Below, piece by piece: positions 12,001 through 15,000 of a stretch of DNA of 51,038 bases. Made by a program: the position numbers. Position 1 is the stretch's first letter, and each line of letters starts with the position of its first letter. Origin of the DNA: a virus (Duplodnaviria > Heunggongvirae > Uroviricota > Caudoviricetes); the IMG/VR virus record IMGVR_UViG_2872180393_000001. One strand, written 5' to 3'.

Positions 12001-15000
12001 TGTCATGAATCGAAGATAAGCAGAACGGACTGGAGGTTTATTGCTTCGGTCTTGTGTGCTTTCGGAATGGCATCAGACATCAGTCCGATTAGCAGGGCTT
12101 TTAAGTATGCGCTTGATGGACTCACCAATAAAAAACGCCCGGTGTGCAAGACCGAGCGTTCTGATCAAATACAAATGGAATTTTAACAACATCCAACGAG
12201 GTAATTATATGCGAAAAACGCAGGAAAATAAACGCGTTAATCACCGAAAAGATGTGCTACGTGACCAGTTTTATCAGGGGGTTAATCCAGAAATAGCTGT
12301 GCCACTGAGAGAAATACTTAACAGGTACAAAACTTCGGAGAAGTCAAAATGAGCATGAATCTTATGGCTAAGGCCATGAATATAAAGGTTGGCAACCCAC
12401 TGAGAAAACTGATTCTGATTAAACTTGCCGATAACGCCAATGATAATGGCGAATGCTGGCCTTCATATCAACATGTCGCTGACCAGTGTGAGGTGAGCAG
12501 ATCGACAGTAAAAAGTCACATTAGGGCACTGGAAGAGATGGGGCTTTTGAAAAGGGAATGCAGAAGAAAAGGAGAGCTTAACCAGTCAAACGTTTTTTAT
12601 CTGACGCTGGATAATGCACAACAAATCCCACCAGAATCAGGTGGGGCAGGAGCTGCCCGGGGTGGGGCAGGAGCTGCCCTAGGGGTGGGGCAGGAGCTGC
12701 CCCAGAACCTATCACTCTTTTGAACCAGTCAATGAACCTAAAAACATTATGTTCGAACATGTCCGAACGGAGTGTGAAAAAACTCCTGACCGTCACGAAG
12801 AAACCGACAAGGCATTCGAGGAAATATTCTGGTGTGCAGGCATGCGGAAAGCCGGGAAGAAAAACGCAGCTTCGGCATTCAGAACACAGTTCAGGGAATG
12901 GCGTAAAACTACCAGGGGTACGGCAAGCGAGTTTGCCACGATGCTGGCAGAAGACATCGCATGCAGGAATGGTAAGCAGTTCGGATTCGACAGGTTGTTA
13001 CCGTCGAGCTACCTGAACGGTCAGCGCTGGAACGACGAGAAGCCAGAAACCATTCAACCACAATCCAGACCATCATCCGCAATTACCGTATCGAAAACTG
13101 GCTACGTGTTTTTCGACAGGTGAACCATGAAATCAAAAATCAAATCGCTACTGGTCGCTGGTTATAACCACGGCTGGTTAAGTATTTCGTTTGTCGATTT
13201 CTGGTTTAAAAATCTCGACCTCAGCAGCCATTAGCTCCGTCAATGGCGTTTAAACGCCATCAGACGCGCTGTAGTGCGATAAACGACGGTCTGACGGAAA
13301 ATACACAGGATAAAAAAATATTGCGTCAGAATGCGATTCAGGACGGTTAAAGTATGAGTCCATCAGAACTTAGCGACCTGCTTTGGGCGCAGGTTGACAG
13401 GGTGGCTCCGCACCTGTTGCCAAACGGCAAGAAAGAGGGGCATGAGTGGGTTGCCGGTAACGTCAACGGTGACAAGGGAAACAGCCTTAAGGTCAACCTT
13501 AGCGGTAAGAAAAAATGGGCTGATTTCGCTGAGGGAGACGGCGGTGACATGCTTGATTTGTGGATGGCATGTCGTGGAATTAACCTGCATCAGGCTATGC
13601 AGGAAGCGAAAGCATTTCTCGGTATCAAGGATGACGATCACCATTTCGATGCCAAACGTGAGAAGAAATTCTCCAGACCTGATCGCAAGAAAATCGCCCA
13701 CTACGTTACCAGAACAGAATCCCATCTTGAGTACCTGCAATCGCGTGGCATATCGCCAGAAGTCGTAAAGCGCTACGAGGTTGTCAGCGGCAAGGTGTGG
13801 AATGGAGAACGAGAACTGGATGCTCTGGTGCTTCCGTACAAACGCGATGGTGAGTTGTTGCAGGTCAAGCGAATCAGCACTGAGCGCCCGGACGGGAAGA
13901 AAGTCATTATGGCAGAAGGTGATTGCGAACCTTGCCTGTTCGGATGGCAGGCTCTGGACGCTGGCGTGAGGGCGGTTGTGCTTTGCGAAGGCGAAATTGA
14001 TTGTATGAGCTATGCGCAATACGGCATCTCGGCGTTATCCGTGCCGTTTGGTGGCGGGAAAGGCGCTAAGCAACAGTGGATTGAGTTTGAGTATCACAAC
14101 CTCGACAGGTTTGAGGAAATATTCATCTCGATGGACGTTGATGATGTTGGTCGTGAAGCCGCAAGGGAAATCGCAAGCCGACTCGGTGAACATCGTTGCC
14201 GTCTTGTTACTCTGCCGTACAAAGACATCAACGAATGCCTGATGAACGGTGTTACCGAGGATGAAATCTGGCAGTACATCGGCACGGCATCCTACTTCGA
14301 TCCTGAAGAACTCTACAGTGCGCGAGAGTTTTACCAGGACACTATCAACGCTTTCTACGGCAAGCAGCAGTATCTGTTTAATCCACCGTGGGAATCTCTG
14401 GCAGATAAATTCCAGTTCCGTGAGGCAGAGTTGACGCTGGTCAATGGTGTGAACGGTCACGGAAAGGCATGCCCACTGAATGAGCCTATTCTTTTAGCTG
14501 ATGGGACATGGACTACTCACGGGAATGTAAAAATTGGCGATCAGGTGGCGTCAGTAGACGGCAATCCGTCAACTGTCACTGGGATATTCCCGCAGGGTGT
14601 TAGAGATGTTTACCGAGTCACATTTGAAGATGGTCGTTATGTTGATTGCGCAGGCGATCACCTATGGGAGGTCACTAGTCGTGGATTCACGAAAGGCGAG
14701 AAACGCCGCGTGATAGATACCTTCGGGTTGAAGCGGTTGAGTGAAACGAAGAGGCACAAAAATGGCGTTAGGATTCCTGAAATAACTGGTGACTTTGGCG
14801 ACCACTCAGAGCTATTAGCATGGGTTATCGGCTCCCTTCTCGGGGATGGTAGTCTTAGCAATGGGAGCGTGAAGTTTTCAAACGTCGAGCCATACATGAT
14901 CGAGCGTATGAAGGCTGAACTGCCTGATTACAACTTCTCTGGAGATGGTAAGGACTGGCTGATATCAACGGCGCGTGGTCAGGTAAATCCACTCATGGAG

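Follow-up and report, generated by a model that had tools for sequence, protein, structure and literature searches.

In bacteriophage lambda, the origin of replication lies within gene O, the gene of the phage initiator, and consists of four dyad-symmetric iterons of 18-19 bp together with a 38-bp AT-rich region; the N-terminal domain of the O protein binds the iterons, and its C-terminal domain recruits P-DnaB. The presence of the iterons within O and their binding by the O protein are documented for lambda-type systems, and mutation of the iterons, with the O protein left unchanged, leads to loss of plasmid replication (PMC7466680, PMC3349717, PMC8022706). The same ori-lambda-type architecture is found in the gene 18 origins of P22 and phage L, as well as in the origins of the Shiga toxin (Stx) phages P27 and 933W (PMC3349717, PMC8022706, PMC7466680). 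However, the report on O proteins and origins in Stx phages covers lambda-type O proteins only (PMC7466680). Additionally, the Eru classification is based on gene content only; its authors state that nothing is known of how these phages replicate, and iterons and origins go unmentioned (PMC8951638). This report provides an assessment of a 51,038-nt stretch of DNA (hereafter, the window), the IMG/VR record IMGVR_UViG_2872180393_000001 of a virus in the class Caudoviricetes, in which three copies of a palindromic repeat lie within the gene of a replication initiator that carries an HTH_36 winged-helix domain. An earlier note on this DNA had likened the arrangement to that of lambda and had proposed it as the origin of the replication module.

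The repeat, GGTGGGGCAGGAGCTGCCC, is present in three exact copies within positions 12640-12702 of the window, i.e. at 12640-12658 (iteron 1), 12661-12679 (iteron 2) and 12684-12702 (iteron 3), with start-to-start distances of 21 and then 23 nt. All three contain the dyad GGGCAG-GAG-CTGCCC, and in iteron 3 the arms are longer, extending to 7 bp (GGGGCAG/CTGCCCC, 12687-12703); it is this terminal copy that all members of the GGGCAG iteron class retain. The 16-mer core of the repeat, GGGGCAGGAGCTGCCC, has no occurrence in the 51 kb outside the array, and when up to three mismatches are permitted there are six matches against 0.51 expected, a number reached in none of 100 shuffles. Hence, the three GGGCAG/CTGCCC inverted repeats of the earlier note are located where it had placed them, as exact copies with a core that is unique to the array. 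We consider it likely, with a probability of roughly 80 %, that these repeats are iterons, the initiator-binding sites of the replication origin of this lambdoid prophage. The argument is a comparative one, drawing on constraint at the DNA level, covariation between site and protein, positional equivalence and module structure. Both the likeness to lambda and the proposed origin function are strongly supported in this way, as the repeats are dyad-symmetric, phased at about two helical turns and situated at the junction of the initiator domains, and as they display DNA-level selection, covary with the recognition helix and adjoin the least stable duplex segment of the gene.

The repeats lie within an open reading frame (ORF; 12349-12723, plus strand) that encodes the HTH_36 winged-helix domain (amino acids 1 to ~90) followed by the repeat-encoded linker, with copies 1 and 2 translating as GGAGAA(R). 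With an E value of 1.7e-14 and a score of 53.8 bits, the match to Pfam HTH_36 (PF13730) exceeds the cut-off of 25. A separate 124-amino-acid ORF in the +1 frame (12749-13123, plus strand), which has no Pfam match, encodes the C-terminal domain of the initiator. Within PHROG, the assignments include phrog_4617 (2e-61, for the HTH_36 ORF) and phrog_8540/391 ('replication initiation O-like'), and both small ORFs fall into such initiator families. In phi24B, phiXuzhou21, Stx2a_F451 and Escherichia coli FDAARGOS_943 there is instead one gene of 777 nt for a protein of 258 amino acids. The order in these intact homologues is HTH_36 domain, repeats, C-terminal domain, and the repeats make up codons ~97-118, i.e. 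a linker in the middle of the gene. Thus, the earlier statement that the repeats lie in the 3' coding region needs correction; in the window they appear 3'-terminal only because of a frameshift that affects the gene in repeat 3 and immediately beyond it.

In lambda and in the window, the iterons are part of the initiator's own coding sequence, where they encode a linker between a DNA-binding N-terminal domain and a recruiting C-terminal domain, are dyad-symmetric with a spacing of ~20-24 bp, and are followed to the right by a less stable segment (in the window a moderately AT-rich one) and then a palindrome. Likewise, the module lies downstream of cro and cII, is transcribed from pR, and can be divided into an N-terminal domain with its iterons and a C-terminal domain with its partner. 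In contrast to lambda, the iterons of the window are GC-rich and number three (one to seven in close relatives), their flank is a sequence-specific conserved element with GAACCAGTCA repeats and not a simple AT-rich tract, and the partner protein is a primase-helicase and not lambda P. The possibility that the initiator is a sequence relative of lambda O was considered and rejected, since neither the ORF in the window nor an intact homologue matches PF04492 (Phage_rep_O) at E<=0.01 and an hhalign comparison of HTH_36 with alignments of the lambda-O N-terminal domain gave a probability of 0.2 %. Among solved structures, the only matches are weak ones of the GntR/FadR winged-helix type (E>=0.02). 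What is found here is therefore the known ori-lambda architecture built upon an unrelated DNA-binding domain, although one of its components, the universal element discussed below, might be more than that.

Two other groups of replicons bear comparison. The initiator region is 95.8 % identical in DNA to those of Stx2a_F403 (AP012529), F451, phi24B and Xuzhou21. As in the Eru5 unit (F403; also phi24B, Min27 and Xuzhou21), an HTH_36 protein and a primase are encoded, with the same gene order downstream of cI, cro and cII. Judged by these shared features, the module matches the Eru5 replication unit, the match being one of replication genes; unlike the intact Eru5 phages, the window has a frameshifted initiator gene. 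The iteron plasmids (RepA/pi/TrfA) also have a winged-helix initiator and phased repeats beside an unwinding element with short direct repeats; however, the putative origin of the window lies inside the initiator gene and in a phage context. No DnaA box was found in 11444-16946 when up to one mismatch was permitted, the Rep_3 family gave no Pfam match, and the sole match to a plasmid initiator was to RepL, at 16.0 bits and below the cut-off of 20.3.

The positional argument derives from initiators that share the C-terminal half of the window gene. Homology to ES18, epsilon34, Sf101 and mEp043 begins at ~12739 of the window, just past the repeats, and extends across the C-terminal domain of the initiator and the primase-helicase. 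This C-terminal domain, which is linked to the primase-helicase partner wherever it occurs in these phages, is common to ES18 gp59, epsilon34 gp50 and Sf101 gp44, with a DNA identity of 92-97 % from ~12739 onward. In ES18 gp59 and epsilon34 gp50, a Phage_rep_O N-terminal domain is followed by four lambda-type iterons, ATCCCTCAAAACGAGGGA, with spacings of 20, 24 and 23, and the GenBank records of these phages label the iteron spot as rep_origin or protein_bind (gp50 binding site). Sf101 has four iterons of the TGTCAC/GTGACA type, TGTCACnnnnnnGGTGACA, at the same junction and with the same spacings of 20, 24 and 23. The GGGCAG repeats of the window occupy the identical junction between DNA-binding and C-terminal domains. 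Hence, these phages and the window have in common the C-terminal domain, the Toprim primase-helicase partner and the iteron slot, whereas ES18, epsilon34 and Sf101 differ in having Phage_rep_O N-terminal domains (the PF04492 matches of the ES18 and Sf101 initiators range from 1e-36 to 1e-38), iterons of the lambda or TGTCAC/GTGACA type and, after these, a strongly AT-rich tract without the GAACCAGTCA element.

Modularity is also evident beyond these chimeras. The N-terminal domain, together with its iterons and the conserved element that follows them, is fused to at least five different types of C-terminal domain, and the next gene varies with the C-terminal domain. It encodes a Toprim primase-helicase, a member of the lambda-P family (PF06992) or an IstB/DnaC-like ATPase, the last of these with a DnaB-like helicase gene after it. 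Furthermore, the C-terminal domain of the window ends in 19 residues (tail ...SRPSSAITVSKTGYVFFDR) that recur on a second, otherwise different type of C-terminal domain, and both types pair with the primase-helicase. Such module exchange points to a division of labour as in lambda O.

Constraint upon the repeats is exerted on the DNA. Among 30 IMG/VR relatives with N-terminal domains that are 76-86 % identical in protein and 72 % identical in DNA, the identity of third codon positions at conserved residues is 0.97 in the last repeat and its right flank (66 nt) versus 0.44 in the HTH domain, and the differences within those 66 nt are mostly non-synonymous, e.g. TTT/TCT/TAT/ATT. The GGGCAG class keeps the arms GGGC(A/G)G and CTGCCC with a free 3-nt spacer (GAG, CTC, ATT, TTC, ATC, CAT, AAT or CAG). 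The repeats are under DNA-level and not peptide-level selection. These data bear upon an alternative in which the repeats are a slippage-prone coding tandem for a flexible Gly/Ala linker, the palindromy arising from GGN/GCN codons and the conservation from recent recombination at a module boundary. Indeed, the copy number ranges from one to seven among near-identical phages, always in in-frame steps of 21 or 24 nt, self-complementarity is inherent in Gly and Ala codons, and the spot is a mosaic junction of N- and C-terminal modules. However, the synonymous sites are 97 % fixed as compared with 56 % changed in the adjoining domain, the few differences being of the non-synonymous kind just noted; the same codons are used in genomes of 38-63 % GC; and the AT-rich repeats of other classes, such as GTGAAAATATTTCAC and TATGCCAGCAGATAGCAC, give quite different peptides.

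Covariation with the protein carries this point further. Distant HTH_36 initiators have other palindromic repeats at the same junction and with the same phasing of 21-24 nt, and at least eight recognition-helix classes can be distinguished, each with its own repeat. The helix xSRSTVKxHIRxLE is accompanied by GGGGCAG-nnn-CTGCCCC, ISKRSVMNHIAALCE by GTGCAGGAGATTCAC, MTRRSAIxHIEYLIK by GTGAAAATATTTCAC, ISKRSVMRHIDDLCE by GTGACACAGAGTCAC, IDRSTVRKHIKQLEA by GTAGGC...GCCTAC / GTAGGCCCAGAAAGCAC, and MGRSTVKQHIKTLAN by GGTCAGAATCTGACC. Two further classes, CSKSAVRNHIDALE with ATGCCAn5TGGCAC and CSKSAVRDHIDALIS with ATGCCGn5CGGCAC, are related by a change from N to D in the helix that is accompanied by a symmetric change in both arms of the repeat. 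Variation in the N-terminal domain is focused on residues 49-84, which comprise the recognition helix and wing as located by Pfam and PDB winged-helix alignments, and residues 1-48 are nearly invariant. In Microbulbifer, the element GTGAATCTCCTGCAC is the exact reverse complement of the iteron of the cdtI phage, with the peptide GESPAPG versus GSAGDSL; because the same site occurs in inverted form with a different peptide, a peptide-level explanation cannot account for the repeats. With the inverted site, and with repeat classes that track the recognition helix, a mere coding tandem is highly improbable.

Another alternative is that the element acts as an RNA or single-strand hairpin, with a role in translation, mRNA stability or priming (a G-quadruplex formed by GGGG being possible), and that no protein binds the duplex. 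Conserved arms around a variable 3-nt loop are also what a hairpin would have, a G-U pair would be preserved when A changes to G in the left arm (GGGCGG/CTGCCC), and the single-strand DNA fold of 12630-12780 is more stable than those of shuffled sequences (z = -3.4). Against this, there are whole arrays with CTGACC, which places a mismatch in the middle of the stem, and inner repeats without a right arm; moreover, no class shows compensatory double changes, the arm sequences of the classes track protein residues, and the conserved element downstream is not self-complementary. An Rfam scan of 11400-13450 at E<=1 also gave no match. Taken together, these observations make a hairpin function very unlikely, and recognition of the duplex by the initiator remains the preferred reading.

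A second conserved element adjoins the array, at 12704-12738 of the window (AGAACCTATCACTCTTTTGAACCAGTCAATGAACC), and was missed by the earlier note; thus, its designation of the repeats as the origin is supported, but probably covers only part of what the origin contains. In every iteron class, the repeats are followed by (A)GAACCAGTCACTCTTtTGAACCAGTCAnnGAACC, also written (A)GAACCAGTCACTCTTTTGAACCAGTCAnnGAACC, the family consensus being AGAACCAGTCACTCTTtTGAACCAGTCAnnGAACC with two to three GAACCAGTCA units; in the window copy, the first unit is degenerate (GAACCTATCA). A scan of IMG/VR with a core of 24 specified bases found this core once per contig in at least 120 contigs (a total that is a lower bound), and, among the matches listed, 113 of 120 are in frame inside an HTH_36-type initiator gene, with the other seven at a contig end or frameshifted. 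The core is also present in 71 stretches of species-representative genomes, of which all the named ones belong to the Gammaproteobacteria, including the genera Pseudomonas, Xenorhabdus, Photorhabdus, Haemophilus, Shewanella, Vibrio, Microbulbifer, Providencia and Erwinia. The element is written with identical codons across the Gammaproteobacteria, at a local GC content of 0.38-0.63, and is independent of the iteron class, the C-terminal domain of the initiator and the helicase route. Elsewhere in the window, GAACCAGTCA is not significantly enriched.

The same flank contains the least stable 40-bp duplex within the initiator gene (12710-12749; nearest-neighbour free energy of -46.6 kcal/mol). 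It is less stable by 1.7 standard deviations than the regional mean of -53.6 (standard deviation 4.2), and the adjoining iterons, at -66.9, are the most stable segment of the gene. The GC content of 12710-12749 is 0.38 (~62 % AT), and nearby intergenic DNA has still less stable segments. To the right of the low-stability segment is a near-palindrome, GTTCGAACATGTCCGAAC, at 12751-12768, and a similar palindrome, GTCCGAAAGTGTTCGGAC, is found at the matching position in ES18. The second element is probably the other half of the origin, with a proposed role in unwinding or loading. The broader proposal, in which this ~35-bp element is a sequence-specific origin component that the HTH_36-type initiators of phages across the Gammaproteobacteria, a very large superfamily, have in common, is tentative, and we would put it somewhat short of an even chance.

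Since the element is conserved as a sequence and not as mere AT-richness, it would be read by something common to all of these systems. In iteron plasmids, Rep proteins make sequence-specific contacts with single-stranded DNA in the DNA unwinding element, which provides a precedent for an unwinding element that is conserved in sequence. One candidate reader is the nearly invariant part of the initiator, residues 1-48, which might contact one unwound strand in the manner of plasmid Rep and lambda O. The trinucleotides recognized by T7-type and DnaG-type primases are 5'-GTC and 5'-CTG, and each GAACCAGTCA unit has both, one per strand; hence, a second candidate is the priming step. A conserved host factor is a third. 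As for the first of these, binding to single-stranded DNA has been reported for lambda-type O (PMC7466680).

A scheme for initiation can be outlined from these components. Dimers of the N-terminal winged-helix domain would bind each dyad GGGCAG-nnn-CTGCCC, and, with the sites spaced 21-24 bp apart and thereby presented on one face of the helix, would assemble an O-some-like nucleoprotein complex. That complex may destabilize the adjoining, conserved segment of low stability, AGAACC(A/T)(G/A)TCACTCTTTTGAACCAGTCAnnGAACC (12704-12749). At the opened DNA, the Toprim primase-helicase encoded downstream would then be recruited by the C-terminal domain of the initiator. As in lambda, the origin would be crossed by transcription from pR that runs through cro, cII and the initiator gene.

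A number of observations weigh against an origin at this site, or at least against a simple version of it. The literature searched contains no experiment on this initiator family, whether on binding or on origin activity, and, with a frameshift in the initiator gene, function in the window is not to be assumed. The AT content of the flank is moderate, far below that of the AT-rich region of lambda. The range in copy number noted above includes relatives with one repeat; an origin with one iteron would be unusual, although single-copy alleles may be collapsed assemblies, given the many short-read contigs that stop within the array. There are relatives whose copies all have CTGACC and thus a broken dyad (Stx2_EH2085, with seven such copies, is one), and distant relatives whose inner repeats consist of the left half only (GGGGCAG...ATAACCC); binding may consequently depend mainly upon one half-site.

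There is also an alternative that retains the protein-DNA interaction. The repeats might bind the winged-helix domain but serve autoregulation, transcription or copy-number control (by titration or handcuffing), with the true origin elsewhere, for instance at 13124-13353. The covariation between site and helix is proof of co-evolution between site and protein but not of origin function, and the final ~130 nt of that interval (13225-13353), between a small gp60-like ORF and the primase-helicase gene, has a perfect 18-bp palindrome, ATGGCGTTTAAACGCCAT (13243-13260), and another inverted repeat (13290-13302 / 13318-13330). This segment is present in E. coli FDAARGOS_943; however, it is missing from phi24B, whose module is intact. 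Additionally, relative to the common C-terminal domain, the sites have exactly the position of the lambda-type origins in ES18 and epsilon34, the element of low stability that is conserved at the DNA level is always next to them, whatever the partner proteins, and there are no further copies of the site near promoters or elsewhere in the window. A purely regulatory role is therefore unlikely, and the repeats are better understood as the iterons of an origin.

The initiator gene of the window is frameshifted as compared with that of intact relatives. In alignments with phi24B, FDAARGOS_943 and Min27, and in a list of blastn indels, the G-run at 12682-12685 has four and not five residues and the C-run at 12700-12703 has four and not five (both within 12682-12703, plus strand). 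The net deficit of 2 nt changes the frame inside repeat 3, leads to a TGA stop at 12721-12723 and leaves two ORFs of 124 amino acids each. Thus, the ORF that the earlier note had taken for the whole HTH initiator is only its N-terminal half. The deficit is also visible in the spacing of the repeats: in ~70 relatives the spacings are 21 or 24 nt, the exceptions being the window and the frameshifted contig L076, both with 23, and the step from iteron 2 to iteron 3 is 24 nt in every relative except L076. IMG/VR does not contain the exact variant that is 2 nt shorter, and in 5426 complete E. coli genomes the closest matches have both extra bases and are thus 2 nt longer. In Min27, the annotated "O" is split by a different, 1-nt deletion. 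A programmed frameshift or a natural two-gene layout was considered and ruled out, as the ORF is continuous in all functional relatives and in nearly all others, the spacings of relatives are confined to 21 or 24 nt and the Min27 split has a different cause. The deficit could be either a real mutation or a sequencing error due to the homopolymer or to GC compression. If it is real, only the DNA-binding half (124 amino acids) would be made, and the module, although its origin DNA is intact, would probably be non-functional unless initiator were supplied in trans.

The G-run before the last iteron is also frameshifted in L076 and L158 (Pseudomonas-like), in L278 (Haemophilus haemolyticus) and possibly in L222 (Lonsdalea); the G4/C4 pair of the window recurs in L076, and in L278 there is one extra G. 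This run may be a recurrent hotspot of mutation or of sequencing error. A side possibility is that the recurrent frameshifts (window, L076/L158 and L278) mark a mutational hotspot that repeatedly inactivates these prophage replicons.

The array is also troublesome to assemble. IMG/VR contigs L008-L012, L015, L016, L031 and L039 end within it, indicating that the iterons break short-read assemblies. In L008 and L017 (at about locus positions 1830-1850), unrelated DNA (GGGGGTGCCCCTATTAAGTTGTCAAGC...) begins abruptly after the array, which suggests insertion or rearrangement at the repeats. Given that the repeats both break assemblies and attract frameshifts, annotators should expect the gene to be called as a split pair of "HTH protein + hypothetical protein".

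Full-text searches of the literature gave no description of these repeats, of the GAACCAGTCA element or of an origin of this kind in phi24B, Min27 or ZF40. The Eru5 module now gains a candidate origin that is directly testable, comprising initiator-binding sites and a likely unwinding site, and the same reasoning probably extends to other Eru types that contain HTH_36. Stx phages with "non-lambdoid" Eru units include those of the phi24B type, and phage replication drives Shiga-toxin output. More broadly, the pairs of helix and repeat amount to a natural specificity code for one winged-helix family, by which origins may be read from sequence in hundreds of gammaproteobacterial prophages, and the conserved GAACCAGTCA element invites a search for its reader. 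PLSDB additionally holds many circular, non-mobilizable 'plasmids' of 38-54 kb in which the initiator/iteron module stands beside phage genes, among them L097 (Microbulbifer, 43.5 kb), L098 (Pasteurella, 54 kb), L099 (Shewanella, 43 kb) and ~10 Arsenophonus records. Probably, these are phage genomes maintained outside the chromosome, or phage-plasmids, with replication starting from this putative origin.

By the ORF and Pfam annotation of the window, the repeats sit in a lambdoid early-right operon. A cI-like repressor gene (10705-11442, minus strand) is followed by cro (11503-11748), cII (11887-12186) and an ORF for 47 amino acids (12209-12352) that ends in an ATGA overlap with the start codon of the initiator. 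The last of these is a 'hypothetical protein' at the matching position in phiXuzhou21 and Salmonella phage SI5, and ES18 (gp58) and epsilon34 (gp49), among other relatives, likewise have a small gene ahead of that of the initiator. At 12132-12162, within the 3' end of cII, the minus strand has a strong terminator-like hairpin with a T-run, in a position and orientation that match the terminator of the lambda oop antisense RNA. The primase-helicase gene (13354-16260, plus strand) encodes 968 amino acids with Pfam matches to Toprim_2, AAA_25, LAGLIDADG_3 and Hom_end_hint and a PHROG assignment of DNA primase/helicase, i.e. a Toprim primase fused to an AAA_25/DnaB-like helicase, and is followed by a NinB gene. 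The Walker A loop is split (GHGKA|C...HN|T) by an intein of 341 amino acids (nt 14470-15492; residues 373-713) that contains Hint and LAGLIDADG homing-endonuclease domains. Its removal leaves 627 amino acids, comparable to the 626 of the intein-free ES18 gp61, and the 968-amino-acid form is also present in phi24B, F451 and E. coli FDAARGOS_943.

Elsewhere, the window has at least four copies of an insertion sequence of the IS600 type. These segments of ~890 bp (6700-7591 and 24131-25023 on the minus strand; 39183-40074 and 48953-49845 on the plus strand) are 99.6-99.9 % identical to a stretch of L084 that is annotated as an IS3-family IS600 transposase. Their density within 51 kb suggests a Shigella-like prophage region that is riddled with insertion sequences and probably decaying.

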